Shown here: positions 627 through 38,139 of the stretch, piece by piece
Position numbering within the stretch: position 1 is the stretch's first letter
Layout: each line of letters opens with the position of its first letter
Assembly (NCBI GenBank): GCA_050950825.1
Contig: JBMNIH010000011.1
Coordinates: forward strand, 64,001-128,000
From: Clostridia bacterium
GTDB taxonomy: Bacteria; Bacillota; Clostridia; JAAYHZ01
Reading direction: 5' to 3'
DNA: 64,000 nt
Position numbers and translations under genes: made by a program
The notes under the pieces: model-generated
The model's database searches: none
What the model was told of the DNA's origin: nothing
What the model saw: only the letters and a program-made list of their open reading frames with translations

Positions 627-3600
627 TTACATAGGCTCATAGGTCTTAGAATTTGCATATACGGGTTTCGCATTCCTTGCTTTCGGAATCATGACCGTAA
701 TCGTCAAAGGTTCCGACCGTAGAACCTCGTTGTTTCTTCTCAGCTTCACATAGATTTCGGTTTTGCCGTTTCGTAAAGCCGTAATCATTCCGTTTTCGAT
801 GACGACGGCGGAAGGATTACGACTTATAATCTCAATATGTCCGTCCGTTTCGGTAAAGGGCGCTCCGGTTTCGTAGAAGGCATTCAAATATATGGGCGTC
901 TTTTGCGATACCAACAGCCGCTTATCGAAAACCTTCGCCTCCGGCTCCCCTACTTTATATATATTCTCATTCTCCAAGGGAATTGTAAACTCCTGCCCTT
1001 CTTCCATGTAATATATATAGCCTTTGGAAAAGTCATTGACATCCGCCAAGCGTTCCACCGTCGTCACGTCTCCGATATCCAATTGGACATAGGCTCCTTT
1101 TCTTACGGCACCGTAGATTTTGTAGACGGCGTTGGTCGGCCTCGTGTTTTTAATCCGGATATATCGTCCCGTAAGCTCGGCAAGGTCCACATTTTGGTCA
1201 AAGGCCACGGTAATTCGGTTCTCTACGGAGATCTCCCTTGTAAAGTCCATAATTTTCCCGGTATACCGTACGGGCTTTTCTTCTCCGAAGCCCTTGAAGG
1301 ACCCTTCATGGGTGTAGGTATAAAAGGGAATGCCGTCTCTTTCGGAGTACACCCCGAAGAAGCCTTTAAAGGTGATTTTGCCGTCCACCGTAATTTCCAA
1401 ATCCGGGTTCGTGCAGTAGACGATGTAATCGATTCGTCCGTCCGGAAAGACCGTTTTCACGCATGCGGCGTCATTTCCTTCGTATACCTTTCCGTTTACA
1501 ACAATCTCCGCTCTTTCGATTTTTTCAACGTTTCTTTCCCCCTTGTAGGGCTCGATAACGGAAACAAACAAGCTGTCCAAATCGTTTCCGCTCCTTCTTG
1601 CGATCAAGTATTCCAATTCCTTCGGGTTACCCGGCTTGTTTCTCGGAGGTATCCCGGTTGCAACGGTTGCATCGTCGACTTTCGACAGCATGGTCAAGCG
1701 GATATGGATATCGGTTTTCTTTCCCTTCCCCAAGGCATTCCATGTGTCCTTAACATGCCAATCCACGCTGAAAACGTCTTCGGGCTCTTCGTCCTTTCTT
1801 ACGTTGATCAGCCAGTGAAATCCGCTGTTTGTCGTATCCTGCGGCGGCCGGATGCCGAATTCCGTGTTCTCTCCTCCATAGGTTCCGATATATTTTCCGG
1901 CAAAATCCGTCTGAGGCGTTAAATTCAAGCCTTCCGTTTCCACGGTCCCTTCGGCGCCGTGGAAGCTGTAATGATGCTCGGATCCTCCTTTTACTCGGAA
2001 AAAGTCCGCCACATAAAAATCCTCGTCGTTAAGCTTGATCATGGCAACGGTGCGGCGGTAATCAACGCCTTTGGTGCCGTAAGCATAGGGAGCGTCCACG
2101 TCGGTCAGCTTTACATAGGCACCGTCCCCGAAATGTAGGGGTACCTCCGTCTTGTTTTTTCGATCTTGGATCGTGCGATCCACCGTTACCGTGTTGTGGC
2201 TTATGGTGTTGCTGACCCATTCCATTCGGTGAGGAGAATTGTCCGCGTATTCCGGATAGCCTAATTCCGGAGTCAAATCCAAGCCGAAGGCATTGATCCC
2301 GATATTCAAGGTATCCGCATGACCGTGGCCGCTCGTTACGCCGTAGTACATCCATAACGCTTTTTGGGTGTCTCCCAAATCGGCGATATCCTTCATGGTC
2401 TGCATATCCGGATCGTAAAGAACCAGCTTGTTTACGGCCATATTCAAGCCTTTGGCTTCGGGGTTTTGGCCCGTACAAACAAATTCTATGGTATGAGTGC
2501 CCTTCTCCAGGAAAAGCTCTTCCAAGTCTTTCGTTTCGGTTCCGTTCCCGTAAAAGTCGATACGGTCGATTTTCTTCCCGTCTAAATATACGTTGTAAAT
2601 GCCGGAAAAACCCGTCCTTTGGAATATCAGCTCTAACAAATACGTACCGGATTCAAGCACGGTAAAGTCGAAGCTTATGGAGTCATTTATCTCTTTTGCT
2701 TCAAATTCCACCCTTTTGCCCATGAAATCTCGGGCTTCTCTCGTTGCGGTATAGCTTAATTTCGGGAAAAGATACGGAATTCCGATTTCGTAGGTGATGT
2801 TGTATCCGTCCCTTAACACCGACAAGCCGTATCCGGTTAAATTGTCGCTCGTTAAATGCAAAGGCCCGATTTCCTCAATGACCTTTCGGATATCCTCCGC
2901 CACTTGGTCCGGATTTTCGGAAAAGATATTGCCGTGGATTCCTTCCGTGGAATTGTTGTTCAAAAAATAGATGACCTGAGCCAAAAGCGGGTCCTTGTAC
3001 CTTTCGTAAGCCAATACGGTTTGGTCCAAATTGATGTATTTCGTAGGATTTCCCGTGGACCCGGAATCCCCGATAAGAGCGCTGTAGCGGTCCGTCAGCA
3101 TCAAGGGAATCATGGCAAAAAACATCTTTCGGAATTTGGGGTTTTCGTACAGGTCCGCAGCGGGATACAATTCGTAGCCGTCCAAGACATTGGCAACGTC
3201 GATGTATTGGCCGAGCCACAGCATATTGTAGCCGGGCGCCGATTCGTTGCCGTGCCCGTCCCGATTCACGTCGTTAACAAAGGTGGCAAGAATATTGCCT
3301 CCCGTGAGCACGTCCCCCGTATAGGAGCCGGACTTGAAATTAAAATCCAGCCATTCTTTGGTCTCCGGCAGGGAATCCAACACCACCGCCGCCGTAGCCA
3401 GGGTGCTTTGGTGCATGCCGTTGTTCCCGAGGATTTGTCCGTTTTTCACGGCGGGATAAATTTGCCGTACAATACCGTCTTCGATGTTTCTTCGAATTCC
3501 CGCTCCGTTTTTGGTACCCAAATTGTACTGCTGCGCTTTTTCGGAAAGAAAACCGACGATTTCCGGATCGTCAAGCACCGGGAAAAACGCATCGTACGCC

Positions 3601-24737: not shown

Positions 24738-27700
24738 ATGAAAAACAAGAAGCGCAACCGAAGGGAAGTTTTTAAAAGCTTAAAAAATCCGGGAGACGTT
24801 ATCCGCATAGCGGATCGAAACGAACAAATACCGACGGGGGCAGATGACCTTTTCTGCTTTGTTCTGCCGAAACCCGTCGAAAAAGAAGAAGCGAAGGCTC
24901 TTTTTCAAAGCCTTCCGGAATACCCTGTCAACAAACGATTTTACACGGGTGAAAGCCTCGATATCCAAGATACTTTTCGAATCTTTGCGGATCCTATAAG
25001 GATCCATATCCAAACCAAGTTCGTAAACAAAAAAGGCTTCGGAAAATCCTTATGCAAAAAGCATATCCTGCTTTTTGCCGTCGGTCAAAGCAGCGATGAA
25101 ATCTACAGCACGGAATTCGATTTTATGTCCGAGCAAAAAGTTCATATTACTTACGGACCTATCAGCGGTATCGGGTTTTCCCATTACCCTTTGCAAATCG
25201 ACGATGCGGACATTCAAGAAACGGATTACGGGTATGTAGGATACGTTTCTTTTCCTTGGAATCGTCTTTCCGTCGATCTTTCCGAAATCCGGTTTAACGT
25301 ATTGAGGGTCGATTGGGGTGCCCATCCCATGACCTCCTTTATCCCCGTGGCTCATTCTTCATTTGTCCACACTCCGAAATCTCCCGTCCGGGTTATGATT
25401 CTTATGCAAAACCAAGGCCGTATGGCGCCTCTACGCCCGACGGAAAACCTGACCAAGCAAAGGAGCGGCTCTTTTGTAACCATGCACCGGGTTCGCGACA
25501 GGCTTTTTCAAATATCCGGACTTGATGAAAGACAAAAAAAGAAGCTGACCCTCCTATCCCCGAAGGGTATCGAAACGGAGCTTTTAGCCGATTATACTTT
25601 TTCTGAAGGAAAAGTCGTCGCAAGCTTTCTTCTTCCCTACTTGTCCGAGGAGGGCTTGTACCGAATACGATATAATGACGAATCCGTCCTGTATTTTGAC
25701 AAACGAGACGCCGTCGAATCGATTTACAGCCGTATCGATGAGACGGATGAGCAAAGCCTTGAAAAAATATCCGTTGACATTGAAAACATAAGCGAAAAGG
25801 CGAAAAAAATGCTTCAAATCGTACCTCCCTACTCCGGGCTGGAAAACGTCCCGGATCCTAAGGATACGAGCCTTCGCCCCTATATGCTCTTTCGATACGA
25901 TTTGGATAATCCCCAAAAAATCATTTCCATTAAAACCGGGGACGCTTATCCCGACGACAATTATCCGGAGGATCATGCAACCGTTATCGACAACGGGACG
26001 GGAAAGCGGATCGAATACCCCTATTATGTATCCGAGGACGGTTTTGATTTGTACCTTACGCCCGGCCTTTGGGCAAACCAAAAAGTCTATATCTGCCGCC
26101 ATGTATCGGAGCTTGCGGACGAAGACCCGGCAGGTGCCGCCCTCGTCCTTTACAAGCTTGCATCCTGCTACAAGGACTATGCTCCCGCCGTAGACTACTA
26201 CTACATCAATTACCCGATATCAAAAGCGGCGGGTCCTCCCTACCCGTATTTCGGCGGCTTGTGGTCACGGTGGTTCTACCACGAGCCGGTTTACATGGCG
26301 GGGATTGCGGAAGCTTACGCCAAAATCAAAAAAACGGATGCCTTTGAAAAGCTCAAAGAAAAATACAACGAGGATATGGAAAACCTTATCCTCTATATGA
26401 TTAAGGACACGGTTAGCTTTATCGAATCCTACGGTATGTGTAACGGGAACATGGACCCTGCCGAATGGATCGGCCTTATACGGATCGGACAGGCCTTAAA
26501 CCGCTGCGACTATATACTGGACGTTTTGGATCGCATCCGTGAATTCATACAAGTCAACTTCATGTTCGACGGCTTTTGGAAAGAAACCACCCTGTCCTAC
26601 CACGACAACGTGGTGAAGGGACTCTTGCAAGCCTTTTCCCGGATCAACAAAGACTCGGAAAATATTTTAAAAGGGTTTCCCGTGCTGCAAAAAGCGATGG
26701 ATATAACGAGGAGGCTGGTGTATCCTAACGGGAAATTTATCCCCGTTCAAGATACCCACTTGTCCGAGATTCATGAGGTTTCGGACATCGTCTTTGAAAA
26801 CTTTCTTCTGCCTTGCTCCAAGATTGTCCGTTTAGCGGGACCCAAAGGAGAAAACCACACGCAAATCGTTTTCCTTGCGGAACCCAAATACGGTCACAAC
26901 CACTTGGATGCTCTGAGCTTCAATCTGTTTTCCCGAGGCGTGGAAATGATCCCGGACTACGGTTACACCCATACAAGCTACCGCTACTGGACCCTCAGCA
27001 CGTTAGGCCATAACACGACGGTTGTAGACGAGAAAGATTCCAAAAACCAAAGCGGCGGCAATCTTTTACAGTACGTACCGGCATCCTTCGGAACCGTAGG
27101 TCTGGTAAGAGGCGCCGACCCCTTCTGCTACGAAGAGGCTTCGGTCTACGACAGGCAAATCGTAACGGTGCCCGGCGAAAACGGGGATATCGGATATACG
27201 GTCGATATTTTCCGTGTAGAAGGCGGAAAAAGACACGAATACACGTTAAACCTTTGCTTGGATTATGACATCGTAACCTCTTGTTCCTTAAATTTGGACG
27301 GCTACAGCGAAACCCTGCTTCCGGAAGACGTCCGCTATGAAAAGCCCATGGAAGAATTATCGAAGGGCTATGCGGAAGGCCGGTACACGGCATACATGTT
27401 CGTAAAGGACGTAAAATACGGTAGTATCGAAAACCGACCTTATCTTGTCTCTTACGTCATCAAGGATAAGGAACACGAAGGAAAAGGCATTCATATCCAC
27501 GGAGTACCTTCGGAGGGTGTCCTCATGATAGGGAAAGCCCCCTCCATGAGGGATACGAGAATTTCCTTCGCTTACGATTTAAACGACCGAAAAGATAACC
27601 ATTGGTCGGATAAATTGGTCATCCGAAAGGAAGGCGACAATTTAAAATCCTCCTTTGTCCATGTGTTTGAGCCCTTCGGCAATAACGAAAAAACGGTTGT

Positions 27701-34688: not shown

Positions 34689-36515
34689 TTATTTATTCTC
34701 TACATAAGTACGATAGTACTCAAAGGTTTTAATTTCATCACGGTTCCAAATTTCCACCCATTTATCCAAGCCTGCAGCGTATATTTGCTCGATATATTGC
34801 TCCCATTCATTGTCGATATTGGCTATCTGCCCTTGATTGAATCGGGTGATAAAATCTTTATGAACCGCATTGATTTGGGCAGAGGTTTCTTCTTGTAACG
34901 TCTTAAATTCCTTGTACATTTCCATGGGCATTGTGAAGGCGGAATAGTACTTATCCGGTCGAATCCACAAGCTGTCATCATAGAAGCCGCCGGGGTGATA
35001 TTTATTCCAGAACTCAACCCATTGGACGGTGCAGGCATCAAAATTCATATAGATTTTGTAATCGTTGATAAAATGCTGATTACCGAACTGCCCGAAGGTA
35101 GCCCCTTCTCCCCTGCCTTTGTATTGGGGCGGTATTTTTTCAGGGTCGGTAAATATCAAAGGACTGTTGAATGGTTCTCCGGCCCATTTATAGTGAATAT
35201 GCTCGATACCCCACTTGTAGCGTATCCAATCTTCTCCGAAATAGGTGTAGTCCAAAATTTGGAACAAACGAATCAGTTTTTCGTCGGATACATGAGCCGC
35301 TATGGGATAGGTTACGCTCGGATCCCAGTTGAATGTAGCATAAGGACGATACTTTCCGTTTTCACCGGGTACGGGAGTAATGACAAAACGAGCATCCGGA
35401 TCCTGAAGCAGTATGGAAGCCGGCGGCCACTGTTCCATATCCGCATAGGTACCCAATATTCGGTAACCGCTTCTTGTGTTCATATAACCTACTTTACCGG
35501 TCGCCCATATGGACTGCAAATCGGCGGCATTTACGCTTCTTAAAAATCCTTTGTCCAGCATTTCTCTTACATACTGCAAGTAATCACGGTAAGGAGTATA
35601 GGCGTAATACGGAACAAAATCTCCAGTGACAGGGTCTTTATAGAAGTGAGAATCGTCCTTGTCATATCCGAACATATTGTATGTAATGTAGCTGTCGTTG
35701 ATGGAGCCGGTAAAGGTCGATCCGTAGGTATCGTCTACGCCGTTGTCGTCCGGATCATCCTCGGTAAAAGCTCTTAATATTTCTTTTACATCGTCCAAAG
35801 AAAATTTCGTGGTACTGAAATATACCGTATCGTCCCATTCCGGTTTTACCACGCTTTTCATGGGAGTTAAGTTTTCCGGTTCATAACCGATATTCTCCAG
35901 CCAATCCAAGCGCCACAAAGGTACATATCCGGTATGCGTTGCACGAGGAGTCAAAGCCGTTAATCCGTAGTACAAATCTTCCGTCCCCTCTACCCTGTTC
36001 ATATGAAAGCCGACGGCATCCTCTAACATTTTCTTGTAATAGCCGGGGTAGTATTGCTTAATCAAATTCAAAGGTACGGTTCTTCCTAAGCCTTGTTCCA
36101 CCATATACACGCCGGATTTGTAATAAAAGCCGTAGTCCGGTACGTCTCCCGCCGCCAACATCATATCCACTTGCTCATTGGCACCGGATTTTACAAGGAT
36201 ATCCCAGAAGTTAAATTTCACATTGAACTTTTCCTCCAGCTCGACTTTATCCCAGCGTCCTTCCACGAACTCCGGATTGCCGAGAAAATTAAACTCAAAT
36301 TTCTCCGCAAAGGGGTTCTCTATAACCGTTGTCGTCTCCGACGTTGTCGTTTTTGGTTCCGGTGCCTTCGTTGTTGTCACGGCTTTTGTTGTTTGCACCG
36401 AGCTTACAGACGATTCGCTGCTTTCGGAAGGATTTTTTTCGCTGCTTGTGTTACAAGCCGCAAAGTTAAGAATAACAGCCGTTACCATTAATAATATGAA
36501 CGCTTTTTTCATCAT
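34689..36515 (-). CDS. ABC transporter extracellular solute-binding lipoprotein (carbohydrate type)
   Basis: Lipobox NFAAC, S/T linker, MLAAGDVPD, RLDWLENIG, LRAFTEDDPDDNGVDDTYG. True start is ATG 36515; the ORF-track extension runs into the inserted element. Confidence 0.85.
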   Translation of the reverse strand: MMKKAFILLMVTAVILNFAACNTSSEKNPSESSESSVSSVQTTKAVTTTKAPEPKTTTSETTTVIENPFAEKFEFNFLGNPEFVEGRWDKVELEEKFNVKFNFWDILVKSGANEQVDMMLAAGDVPDYGFYYKSGVYMVEQGLGRTVPLNLIKQYYPGYYKKMLEDAVGFHMNRVEGTEDLYYGLTALTPRATHTGYVPLWRLDWLENIGYEPENLTPMKSVVKPEWDDTVYFSTTKFSLDDVKEILRAFTEDDPDDNGVDDTYGSTFTGSINDSYITYNMFGYDKDDSHFYKDPVTGDFVPYYAYTPYRDYLQYVREMLDKGFLRSVNAADLQSIWATGKVGYMNTRSGYRILGTYADMEQWPPASILLQDPDARFVITPVPGENGKYRPYATFNWDPSVTYPIAAHVSDEKLIRLFQILDYTYFGEDWIRYKWGIEHIHYKWAGEPFNSPLIFTDPEKIPPQYKGRGEGATFGQFGNQHFINDYKIYMNFDACTVQWVEFWNKYHPGGFYDDSLWIRPDKYYSAFTMPMEMYKEFKTLQEETSAQINAVHKDFITRFNQGQIANIDNEWEQYIEQIYAAGLDKWVEIWNRDEIKTFEYYRTYVENK

Positions 36516-36525
36516 TTTCACCTCC

Positions 36526-37015
36526 CTAATAATACTTTGATTTTCTTTGAATATCTCACTCATTCTTAGATTTTCTCATTTTTCAAGATGAGCCACATGG
36601 ACAGACAATACATTGTTGCATAATTATGGATTCCATAGTGCATACTAATTAAACCTGCGTCGTTTTGCTGTTTTACGGCCATTAGTATCCACACATTCTC
36701 CGGTGGCAACCCTCCCATGTCTAACGGGGTCATAGCCCTTAATTCCTTCGTTCTGCCTGCCCATGGAGGTGGATGTCAGTCAAGCTCCTTCACGGGGTCA
36801 TTGCCCTTATGGTGAAAATTCATCCCGACTATCCGGCTCTTCTTGTCAATGTTCAATCTATAATGAATGAATAGTGAAAACTTGAGTTTTACTCTGTCCC
36901 CTTGCACCGCTTAGTTACTTCCGTCATTGCTCGAGGAAGACTGTCAAGGGTCGGCGCAAGCCGAACGCAGTCTTGCCCTTGACCGTCTTACGAGAGCAAT
37001 GTATCCTTCCATAAG
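36526..37015 (-). mobile_element. Non-autonomous IS110-family-like element (no transposase) inserted in a Shine-Dalgarno sequence
   Basis: GGAGG (plus-strand CCTCC) at 36521-36525 and 37016-37020; deleting the insert restores AAAAGGAGGTGAAAATG. Long hairpin at 36925-37001; duplicated 18-nt motif; no ORF of transposase size. Confidence 0.7.
36700..36830 (-). ncRNA. Putative IS110 bridge/seek RNA (boundaries approximate)
   Basis: Repeated motif TAAGGGCWATGACCCCGT (36724-36741, 36792-36809); guide-like AAGGAG and CACCTCC segments match the insertion site. Confidence 0.5.
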
Positions 37016-37251
37016 CCTCCTTTTCTTTACACGTAAAATCCGCAATGACGATGTTCTCTATGTTCTCTATCTTTTCGTCATCGACCGGTCGAATTGATAT
37101 CTTTTACAACATTTTACCTAATTTTCGATAATGAAAAAAAAGGAACGAAAATGACATGTTTTTTTAAACAATGACTATAAATTACACAAAGGAAAGAGAT
37201 TTATTAAATTATGAGAATGGAAGGAAATAATCGACATCAAAAGTAAGGATT

Positions 37252-38139
37252 TTATTCCGTATGTTGTTTTCGGTATTCTTTGGGCGTTAATCCGGTGATT
37301 TGTTTAAATTTTCGAAAGAAATAGTTGGAATTATTAAATCCCACCATATCCGATATTTCCGCTACCGTATACGGTTTATTTTTCAATAAATAGCAGGCAT
37401 GATGGATTCGGTGCTGTGTAAGCTTTTTTGAAAAAGTGACGCCGTAGGATTCTTGTAGAATTCGTGTCAATTGGCGAACACTCAAATGCATGATTCGAGC
37501 CAAATCCTCCACTTTTATATCCTGCATATAGAAAGAATTAAAAAATCCGTCAATAAAGGCTTCCCTGTTTTCCTGGGTATATTTGAAAAACGGCTTGCTT
37601 TCTTCTCCGGTTGTACTGAAGACCTCTCTTAGTATACTAATGATCAGCTGTATAAAACCGCTTCGAATCACGGCGGTATAACCTAGCTTCGGATTTTCGA
37701 ATTCTTTTATGATACGCTCAACCATATGAATTTGCTCGGTATTGTCACGGAAGATATAGTATTTGTCAATTTGATCGGCGTAATTAAATATCTCGGAATA
37801 AATCCCGCTTTTCGGCTCAATGCTGAATCGAAAACTGCATCGGGATGTGCTTTCTTGGGAAATGTTCATGATGGAATGGTATACACGAGGGCAAATAATT
37901 AAGCAACTTCCGGCATGCAATAGGATTTCCTTGTGGTCCACGTTAAATTGATGCTCTCCGCTCTTTATGAAATGTACCTCATACACGGGATGATTGTGAA
38001 AGGATACGGTCCACGACCCGGATCCGAAAAAGCTTTTGTTTAAATATACTCGCAAAAGAGCATCCTGAATATCCGCTTCGAAGTTGTATGTCTTCGTATC
38101 GTTCATTTTTTCTATTGGAAGGCTTTCCGAACAATTCAT
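37252..38139 (-). CDS. AraC-family transcriptional regulator (cupin + HTH)
   Basis: FHNHPVYEVHFIKSG; LSVRQLTR; EISDMVGFNNSNYFFRKFKQITGLTPKEYR. Confidence 0.92.
   Translation of the reverse strand: MNCSESLPIEKMNDTKTYNFEADIQDALLRVYLNKSFFGSGSWTVSFHNHPVYEVHFIKSGEHQFNVDHKEILLHAGSCLIICPRVYHSIMNISQESTSRCSFRFSIEPKSGIYSEIFNYADQIDKYYIFRDNTEQIHMVERIIKEFENPKLGYTAVIRSGFIQLIISILREVFSTTGEESKPFFKYTQENREAFIDGFFNSFYMQDIKVEDLARIMHLSVRQLTRILQESYGVTFSKKLTQHRIHHACYLLKNKPYTVAEISDMVGFNNSNYFFRKFKQITGLTPKEYRKQHTE

Follow-up and report, generated by a model that had tools for sequence, protein, structure and literature searches.

The bridge RNA of IS621 carries left guides that have top-strand sense and right guides that are complementary to the top strand (Durrant et al. 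2024, PMC11208160). Set beside the outline of IS621 given in that report, the element described here is alike in having a target and a donor internal loop with the same guide senses, a DEDD recombinase, and a core common to the target and the element ends. It differs from the same outline in several respects: the gene for the RNA sits on the 3′ and not the 5′ side of the recombinase gene, the right guide comes first within each loop, the same apical hairpin sits on both loops, the core is AG and not CT, the target is a Shine-Dalgarno site and not a REP sequence, and no Rfam model matches the RNA (PMC11208160 for the IS621 side). For the IS1111 elements ISEc11, ISPa11 and ISKpn4, the account of their seekRNAs (Siddiquee et al. 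2024, PMC11187229) places the NCR downstream of the recombinase gene and the top-strand match 5′ of the bottom-strand match, and in both points our element agrees. However, IS1111 recombinases are there given as about 330–350 aa, against 427 aa here. Subterminal inverted repeats of 7–17 bp are a further mark of the IS1111 group, and among the 25 longest inverted pairs of our element there was no end-to-end or long subterminal inverted repeat. Some members of the IS110 branch have a 3′ NCR (PMC11187229), and the element fits that branch, with its long recombinases and occasional 3′ NCR, better than it fits IS1111.

Two further systems can be compared. ISPpu9 is likewise of the IS110 family and has AG at the crossover, and its ssr9/MITEPpu9 modules are, like our copy, RNA-gene modules with no recombinase gene nearby (Pares-Guillen et al. 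2025, PMC12288879). In ISPpu9, ssr9 is not the bridge RNA and is dispensable for transposition, whereas the solo copy here carries a bridge RNA; moreover, ssr9 is flanked by copies of both end boxes, and the solo copy has the right end only (PMC12288879). CazIS110-1 of Caloranaerobacter azorensis, as summarised by Sun et al. (2025, 10.1101/2025.10.25.684509), is another Clostridia IS110 element with a bridge RNA, and a shorter RNA with the target loop only takes part in its transposition.

The solo tail that we describe is a fresh example of the already known IS110-family bridge/seek RNA, and the annotation label that fits the stretch is a partial IS with an ncRNA gene, not a new system. What it offers is a well-supported natural bridge-RNA architecture: a long IS110-type recombinase gene is followed on its 3′ side by the RNA gene, and the same cap sits on both loops. 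IS900 of mycobacteria, also of the IS110 family, has long been reported to insert at translation initiation signals, although the IS900 group has a distant host and a distant recombinase. A Shine-Dalgarno-programmed RNA, combined with an element end that rebuilds the site, would provide an RNA-level explanation for IS110 relatives landing on translation signals. In a full-text literature search, neither solo copies of a bridge RNA nor bridge RNAs directed to ribosome-binding sites were found described; predicted bridge RNAs or a target logo for members of this subfamily may be listed in the supplements to the IS621 and seekRNA papers.

Insertion borders, full copies and the empty site

On the minus strand of the 64-kb window (the whole stretch of DNA that was analysed), positions 36521–37015 form a 495-nt insertion. 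We read it as a 5′-truncated solo copy of an IS110-family element with an intact bridge/seek-type guide RNA gene, a reading to which we assign a probability of roughly 0.85. The features of the insertion site are as follows.

36521–37015, minus strand: solo copy of the 3′ non-coding part of an IS110-family element, with NCR and right end, 100% identical to the copy on contig C9
36521–36531, minus strand: right end TATTAGGGAGG, the rebuilt Shine-Dalgarno for the downstream gene (copy comparison, empty-site contigs)
37016–37024, minus strand: left flank AAAAGGAGG, the original Shine-Dalgarno, now parted from its gene (copy comparison, empty-site contigs)
36925–37001, minus strand: long imperfect hairpin at the NCR start, with 26-nt arms that are 85% complementary; its basal stem is cut in the window copy
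34689–36515, minus strand: gene for a predicted lipoprotein of 608 aa (MMKKAFILLMVTAVILNFAAC...), downstream of the insertion
37252–38139, minus strand: AraC-type regulator gene (PF12833, PF00165, PF07883, PF02311), upstream of the insertion

Positions 36500–37050, used as a query, matched three places in the host genome, namely the window itself and contigs C9 and C10. The C9 copy is 100% identical to the window copy over exactly 500 nt, and the C10 copy matches in two pieces, with an internal deletion of 68 nt that corresponds to one of two repeated 18-mers plus the 50 nt between them. Both C9 and C10 hold full copies, each with a 427-aa ORF that terminates 8 nt ahead of the common stretch. 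The ORF matches PF01548 (E 4.7e-25) and PF02371 (E 2.7e-24), and scores 215.5 bits against NF033542, ‘IS110 family RNA-guided transposase’, for which the cut-off is 140.

Comparison of the copies fixed the element ends. Alignment of C9 with C10 gives ...AAGGAG/CATTCCTGTAGTG (a slash marks each junction), the left junctions of the full copies read TTTAAGGAG/CATTCC and TTGAATGAG/CATTCC, and the true left end is CATTCCTG. At the other side, the three copies read TTAGGGAG/GTGAAG, TTAGGGAG/GTATAT and TTAGGGAG/GTGAAAAT, which places the right end at ...TATTAGGGAG/G. The window copy has neither the left end nor the recombinase gene, and starts at GCTTATGG. Relative to the full copies, its left break falls 8–9 nt past the stop codon of the recombinase gene. 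The break interrupts a conserved stem, the 13-nt basal stem CTTACACCGCTTA/TAAGCGGTGCAAG, which is intact in the full copy and cut by the left border of the window copy. CTTATGG, which the first-pass annotation of this DNA had taken for the start of the element, is internal to the full element. The left junction on the minus strand is ...AAAAGGAGG/CTTATGG... (37016–37024 / 37005–37015), the right junction is ...TATTAGGGAGG/TGAAAATGATG (36521–36531 / 36510–36520), and GGAGG stands at both borders (36521–36525 and 37016–37020).

There is no recombinase gene adjoining the RNA gene at the window locus, and on this ground the copy counts as solo. The proposal that the guide gene was retained without its enzyme holds at this locus and fails for the genome as a whole, which has two intact 427-aa recombinase genes on other contigs (C9 and C10) alongside two intact RNA genes (C9 and the window). 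The RNA gene is an orphan at the window locus only.

The uninterrupted site was also seen. Contigs from two of four RNA-library runs join position 36520 directly to 37016, skipping the 495 nt, with five letters (GGAGG) in common. The site reads AAAAGGAGGTGAAAATG in those contigs and, taken together with the Shine-Dalgarno and start codon of the lipoprotein gene, AAAAGGAGGTGAAAATGATG. The spacing from GGAGG to ATG after insertion equals that of the empty site, and it is the element's own GGGAGG that now precedes the gene. Because the right end of the element finishes in GGGAG, the lipoprotein gene retains a GGAGG Shine-Dalgarno at unchanged spacing. Five other right flanks found in RNA-library contigs each have an ATG within about 12 nt. 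In the runs that yielded the empty site, the NCR contigs run on into the 3′ end of the recombinase gene. No contig in the four runs bridged the solo-copy junctions, a result that is uninformative on absence, and metagenome contigs scanned for exact occurrences of the left flank gave 0 matches, so that a full-length allele at the insertion site could not be sought there.

As a separate observation on this material, the word depth of the NCR contigs is above that of the flanks (111 vs 4–7 in X15); such contigs reveal neither transcription, RNA ends nor strand.

The insert separates the likely promoter region from the rebuilt Shine-Dalgarno, and transcripts of the lipoprotein gene should presumably cross it. 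This would be compatible with an insert that the host has taken over as a 5′ leader or regulatory element of that gene, an idea to which we give almost no credence: the insert does not differ from the tail of the element itself, the empty allele lacks it, and no selection is visible on the window copy. The 608-aa lipoprotein itself had no family match in Pfam or NCBIfam.

Structure and conservation of the RNA gene

The first-pass annotation had drawn attention to two 18-mers, 17/18 identical (94%), which are confirmed at 36724–36741 and 36792–36809. By our own estimate, two copies that agree at 17/18 positions inside about 900 nt lie far outside chance expectation, on the order of 1e-4. Both 18-mers fall within a candidate RNA gene, with the following parts.

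36656–36846, minus strand: putative bridge/seek-type RNA gene with two modules, roughly 190 nt (covariance model R1, 142.9 bits, E 1.1e-35)
36825–36831, minus strand: closing stem of the target module, 5′ strand (TAGTCGG), pairing with 36774–36779 (helix 2, 97.3% of cells pair)
36774–36779, minus strand: closing stem of the target module, 3′ strand (CTGACA) (alignment, structure test)
36792–36809, minus strand: apical hairpin of the target module, the first 18-mer (repeat search; helix 3)
36765–36773, minus strand: basal stems of the donor module, 5′ strand (TCCACCTCC, which includes CACCTCC) (helices 4–5)
36685–36709, minus strand: basal stems of the donor module, 3′ strands (TTGCC, GGAG, GTGGA) (structure test and model fit)
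36724–36741, minus strand: apical hairpin of the donor module, the second 18-mer (helix 7, 94.1% of cells pair)

The stretch is well conserved. Of 80 loci of relatives, 72 have a core match of at least 100 nt (element positions 165–330) downstream of the recombinase gene; the 80 loci have a recombinase identity of 51–77% and were taken among the matches listed. Four of the remaining eight loci reach a contig end, three are truncated (with no NCR or with the first module only), and one is internally deleted. Two scans of the collection gave at least 586 and at least 587 confirmed relatives, and the bridge-RNA architecture is widespread in Clostridia.

The covariance model R1 was built from a MAFFT alignment of 68 distinct sequences. 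The structure comprises 37 pairs in 7 helices, arranged as an outer stem and two tandem modules, in each of which a closing stem leads to an internal loop topped by an apical hairpin. In the alignment 89.9% of cells pair, compared with 27.8–47.1% when partners are slid; the structure was drawn by eye from, and then tested on, one plain MAFFT alignment, and such a derivation alone tends to beat slid versions. Changes on both sides are seen in 20/37 pairs, and 0/500 shuffles reach any of five measures. Helix 2, the closing stem of the target module, has four of its seven pairs changing on both sides, and at pair 124/149 of helix 7 there are 12 sequences with changes on both sides. The apical hairpin has the same form in both modules, GGRC-loop-G[A]YCC, and it is these hairpins that the two 18-mers represent; in the target hairpin, GGGC/GACCC alternates with GGAC/GATCC within the alignment. 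Frequent G-U pairs fit only the recombinase-sense strand. Automated folding recovered less, with 18 pairs from RNAalifold alone and a single-sequence fold no better than shuffles (z +1.10), the latter method being uninformative for an RNA with large internal loops. Rfam gave 0 matches at E ≤ 1 in 36300–37400.

Two near-identical direct repeats near an element end could also be protein-binding repeats, with the conserved stretch acting as DNA. Yet both-side changes preserve pairing in 20/37 pairs, the common G-U pairs fit one strand only, and the loop segments track flanks and ends, all of which makes a purely DNA-level role very improbable. The alignment instead supports the view that the conserved stretch encodes an IS110-family bridge/seek-type RNA, in keeping with the original suggestion that an IS110-type bridge RNA is encoded here. 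The two tandem homologous modules with the same cap are what a tandem duplication would leave.

No junction promoter was found for this genome's element, and a promoter scan of the window region gave 6 matches, vs 2.7 ± 1.8 expected, none of them convincing. Separately, Lachnospiraceae-type relatives have a clear junction promoter, with TTGACW, 17 nt and TATAAT.

Target and donor guides

The short strings to which the first-pass annotation had given guide roles are all present on the minus strand: AAGGAG at 36785–36790, CACCTCC at 36765–36771, CCATAAG at 36806–36812, GGGAGG at 36711–36716 and ATTTTCACC at 36811–36819. Matches of 6–9 nt are not judgeable from one sequence and were judged by comparison across relatives, from which four guide segments are proposed.

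36785–36793, minus strand: left target guide GTGAAGGAG, of the same sense as the left flank and ending on the AG core (flank covariation)
36811–36819, minus strand: right target guide ATTTTCACC, 9/9 complementary to the window's right flank
36741–36749, minus strand: right donor guide segment GAAGGAATT, containing AGGAAT, the complement of ATTCCT in the true left end CATTCCTG
36711–36719, minus strand: left donor guide segment CATGGGAGG, in which GGGAG is identical to the right end and the G after it to the first base of the flank

The left target guide covaries with the left flank. Over 48 distinct left flanks, guides matched their own flank at 329/480 positions, while shuffled pairings gave 289.6 ± 6.2 (z 6.35; 0/10,000 shuffles as high). 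A new set of 15 metagenome loci reproduced this, with 103/150 matches vs 83.4 ± 3.8 (z 5.2). Rare left guides match rare flanks (GGAAAG, ATGAAG, AGAAAG), and in the replication set one guide matches at 10/10 positions (locus L183), CGCGGAG is matched in L130 and GATAG in L128. These data uphold the assignment of AAGGAG as the left target guide. A k-mer scan of flanks against the whole NCR, in which bins at or beyond +280 were ignored as flank self-matches, likewise picked out the left-guide position (12 vs 3.7 and 24 vs 14.8 expected), and the right-guide position was faint (4 vs 1.4).

For the right target guide, the window's own subfamily is informative. At 13 sites, pairs of a guide with its own flank score 5.92 vs 4.39 ± 0.34 (0/20,000 shuffles). 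A larger set of 31 distinct flanks, which includes new metagenome loci aligned with the covariance model, gave a score of 5.13 for own pairs vs 4.25 ± 0.19 (z 4.6, 0/20,000 shuffles), or z 3.45 when two constant letters are left out; the restriction to the subfamily was chosen after seeing the data. Over all 51 mixed flanks the pairing is weak (p 0.038). The register of the right guide varies by 1–2 nt between loci, and in the mixed set registers −1, 0, +1 and +2 gave z −0.15, 1.26, 2.41 and 1.01, with z 2.9 for the best of three. A column-by-position scan for the right flank had no standout, the largest excess being 0.20. The solo copy of a sister species has a different right guide, which matches its own flank 9/9. 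Together with the 9/9 match at the window locus and the z of 4.6 within the subfamily, the complementarity of ATTTTCACC to the flank is well explained by a right target guide. The two target guides support a target loop programmed for a Shine-Dalgarno site, as had been suggested when the guide was described as aimed at ribosome-binding sites.

The donor loop can be compared with the element ends. On the 5′ side of loop 2, the guide and the left end agree at all 49 of 49 loci, as GGAAG/CTTCC (32 loci), GGAAT/ATTCC (12) or AGAAG/CTTCT (5), with no exception. On the 3′ side, 42/43 loci pair GGGAGG with a GGGAG right end (34 loci) or AGGAGG with GAGGAG (8), with one exception, and GGGAGG, earlier noted as equal to the element end plus core, thus tracks the right end as a left donor guide should. 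As the loci are related and the states follow clades, this donor-guide covariation amounts to only 2–3 independent changes. The right donor guide AGGAAT, at 36743–36748, was absent from the first-pass annotation; it does not cover the core.

That annotation had wired the loops differently, with CACCTCC as the antisense target guide and as an anti-SD tract that may affect translation, and CCATAAG as a donor guide for the element start. The complementarities behind this scheme are real, CACCTCC to GGAGGTG and CCATAAG to CTTATGG, but they do not withstand the comparison. CACCTCC lies within co-varying helices: by the covariance-model fit, the strand at 36765–36773 pairs with GGAG and GTGGA at 36685–36709, and CACCTCC is thus a stem strand of the donor module. 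Since another subfamily has CCCTGGT in its place, with matching partners, CACCTCC cannot be counted as the right target guide or as a conserved anti-SD tract, and that subfamily still inserts at AGGAG sites. CTTATGG is the point of truncation, internal to the full element, and CCATAAG links the right target guide to hairpin 1. We regard the earlier wiring as scarcely credible. The check that had been proposed, a covariance model combined with guide–target covariation, came out in favour of AAGGAG, ATTTTCACC and GGGAGG and against CACCTCC and CCATAAG.

Proposed action in trans and origin of the solo copy

In the mechanism that we propose, the 5′ sides of both loops would pair with the top strand right of the crossover, and the 3′ sides would share the top-strand sense left of it. 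Module 1 would read the target as AAGGAG, the AG core and then GGTGAAAAT, which amounts to an extended Shine-Dalgarno site. Module 2 would read the element's own joined ends, ...TTAGGGAG/CATTCCTG..., and the element would have inserted at the AG of AAAAGGAG/GTGAAAATG, ahead of the lipoprotein gene. We infer that the RNA is made, and that it is bound by the recombinase of the two full copies and acts in trans. The RNA of the C10 copy is reduced to one hybrid loop, in which the right target guide is combined with the left donor guide, and its score is 29.8 bits; a hybrid-loop deletion of this kind arose independently in locus L040.

The window copy has lost the left end together with the recombinase gene. 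To within 1 nt, this missing part begins at the first base of the element, and microhomology is absent. A loss with these borders points to a recombinase-made event, not a random deletion, and both in-place deletion and transfer of a partial element are possible. The target-loop-only RNA of CazIS110-1 bears on this case only as a potential route to partial transfers.

Matches to the element were found in 9 of 150 sampled genomes of the class, and three of these nine hold a copy without an adjoining recombinase gene: this genome, the sister species and genome G148. In the sister species' assembly the only IS110 relative is 23% identical, and the G148 solo copy retains about 45 nt of the 3′ end of the recombinase gene. 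A left border common to the window and sister-species solo copies was considered and dropped, the common string being only about 7 nt.

Several of these observations would also suit a non-autonomous mobile module of 495 nt with CTTATGG as its left border, moved to GGAGG by a recombinase in trans in the manner of ssr9/MITEPpu9 on ISPpu9. Presence and absence are both seen, with an exact empty site and the 5-nt GGAGG at both borders; the 100% identity to the C9 copy suggests a recent event; the left break is within 1 nt of the full element's first base; solo copies occur in two other genomes among the nine with a match; modular circles are documented for ISPpu9, in its published description (PMC12288879); and CCATAAG, beside the right target guide, is complementary to CTTATGG. 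We nevertheless consider such a module distinctly unlikely. Measured against MITE-like elements, the copy has the right end only and is the one solo copy in this genome, its left border cuts a conserved stem, and the donor loop fits the left end of the full element, not CTTATGG. The solo copy of the sister species has no such CCATAAG match, and the third solo copy is cut elsewhere, inside the 3′ end of the recombinase gene. Other decayed forms are common: decay of these IS110-family elements has left 3′-truncated and internally deleted copies.

It is also unlikely that the solo tail, instead of being dead debris, still functions as a guide gene acting in trans, and perhaps as a mobile module that targets itself. 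It would then supply intact bridge RNA to the C10 copy, whose recombinase gene is intact and whose own RNA has collapsed. If that were true, the tail could also undergo excision and precise re-insertion at GGAGG, and recombinase and guide would be separable, independently evolving modules in nature. The natural variants seen among the relatives, namely solo guide genes, hybrid single-loop deletions that have arisen twice and copies with the target loop only, provide material for the question of whether guide and enzyme work in trans in nature. One relative is inserted in the Shine-Dalgarno of another copy's recombinase gene.

Guides in divergent copies

From two unrelated copies of the IS110-family element, the whole stretch between hairpin 1 and hairpin 2, the apical hairpins of the target and donor modules, has been lost:

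Contig C10 of the window's own genome (locus L003), ~1460-1560, minus strand: hybrid-loop copy
Locus L040, ~2960-3010: hybrid-loop copy

This loss is a repeat-mediated deletion. The RNAs of both copies are left with a single hybrid loop, in which the right target guide is joined by the left donor guide, and the two in combination give the element's own right junction. The recombinase gene of the C10 copy is intact.

A further guide variant is seen in the metagenome contig L113, which encodes a 100% identical recombinase and has AATGAG as its left target guide, compared to AAGGAG. As the left flank of L113 is itself AAGGAG, this single guide change does not follow that flank. We do see AATGAG, the guide variant of L113, as the left flank in the C10 copy.

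Insertion sites and element ends

Two further loci have insertions directly in front of genes:

L118, 1-960: related element
L107 (genome G148), 1150-1840: third solo copy

The right end of the L118 element, ATAGAGGGAGG, lies immediately 5' of the ATG of the recombinase gene of another copy, placing its insertion in the Shine-Dalgarno sequence of that gene. The L107 copy, which retains ~45 nt of the recombinase gene 3' end, is again immediately 5' of a gene, whose product has a signal peptide (MKKIICSLTVLALTF...).

In Lachnospiraceae-type relatives (L016-L087, e.g. L055 and L061), the right end carries TTGACA or TTGACT and the left end TATAAT. Connecting the right end to the left would create a sigma-70 promoter that fits the consensus and has a 17-nt spacer. 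A counterpart of this junction promoter was sought in the element of the window's own genome, and was not found.

Additional matches and a conserved hairpin

Other IS110-type sequences in the same genome, and a second covariance-model match, are as follows:

C3:44104-44238: 45-residue fragment, 76% identical to the 427-aa recombinase
C2:175641-176699 and C2:192457-193398: other IS110-family genes
C7, C10 and C3: three further equal-score places
Window 25332-25373, minus strand: weak covariance-model match (15 bits, E 0.017)

The genome holds several such other genes, with 27-28% identity to the recombinase. The covariance-model match covers model positions 100-143, in the donor hairpin region, and is probably due to chance.

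Beyond the recombinase stop codon there is a long hairpin with imperfect pairing:

Window 36925-37001; full copy L002, 1493-1616: hairpin 3' of the stop codon

No T-run is found 3' of the hairpin. The structure comprises 26-nt arms and, in the full copy, a 13-nt basal stem, and it is kept in the closest relatives, L009, L010 and L032.
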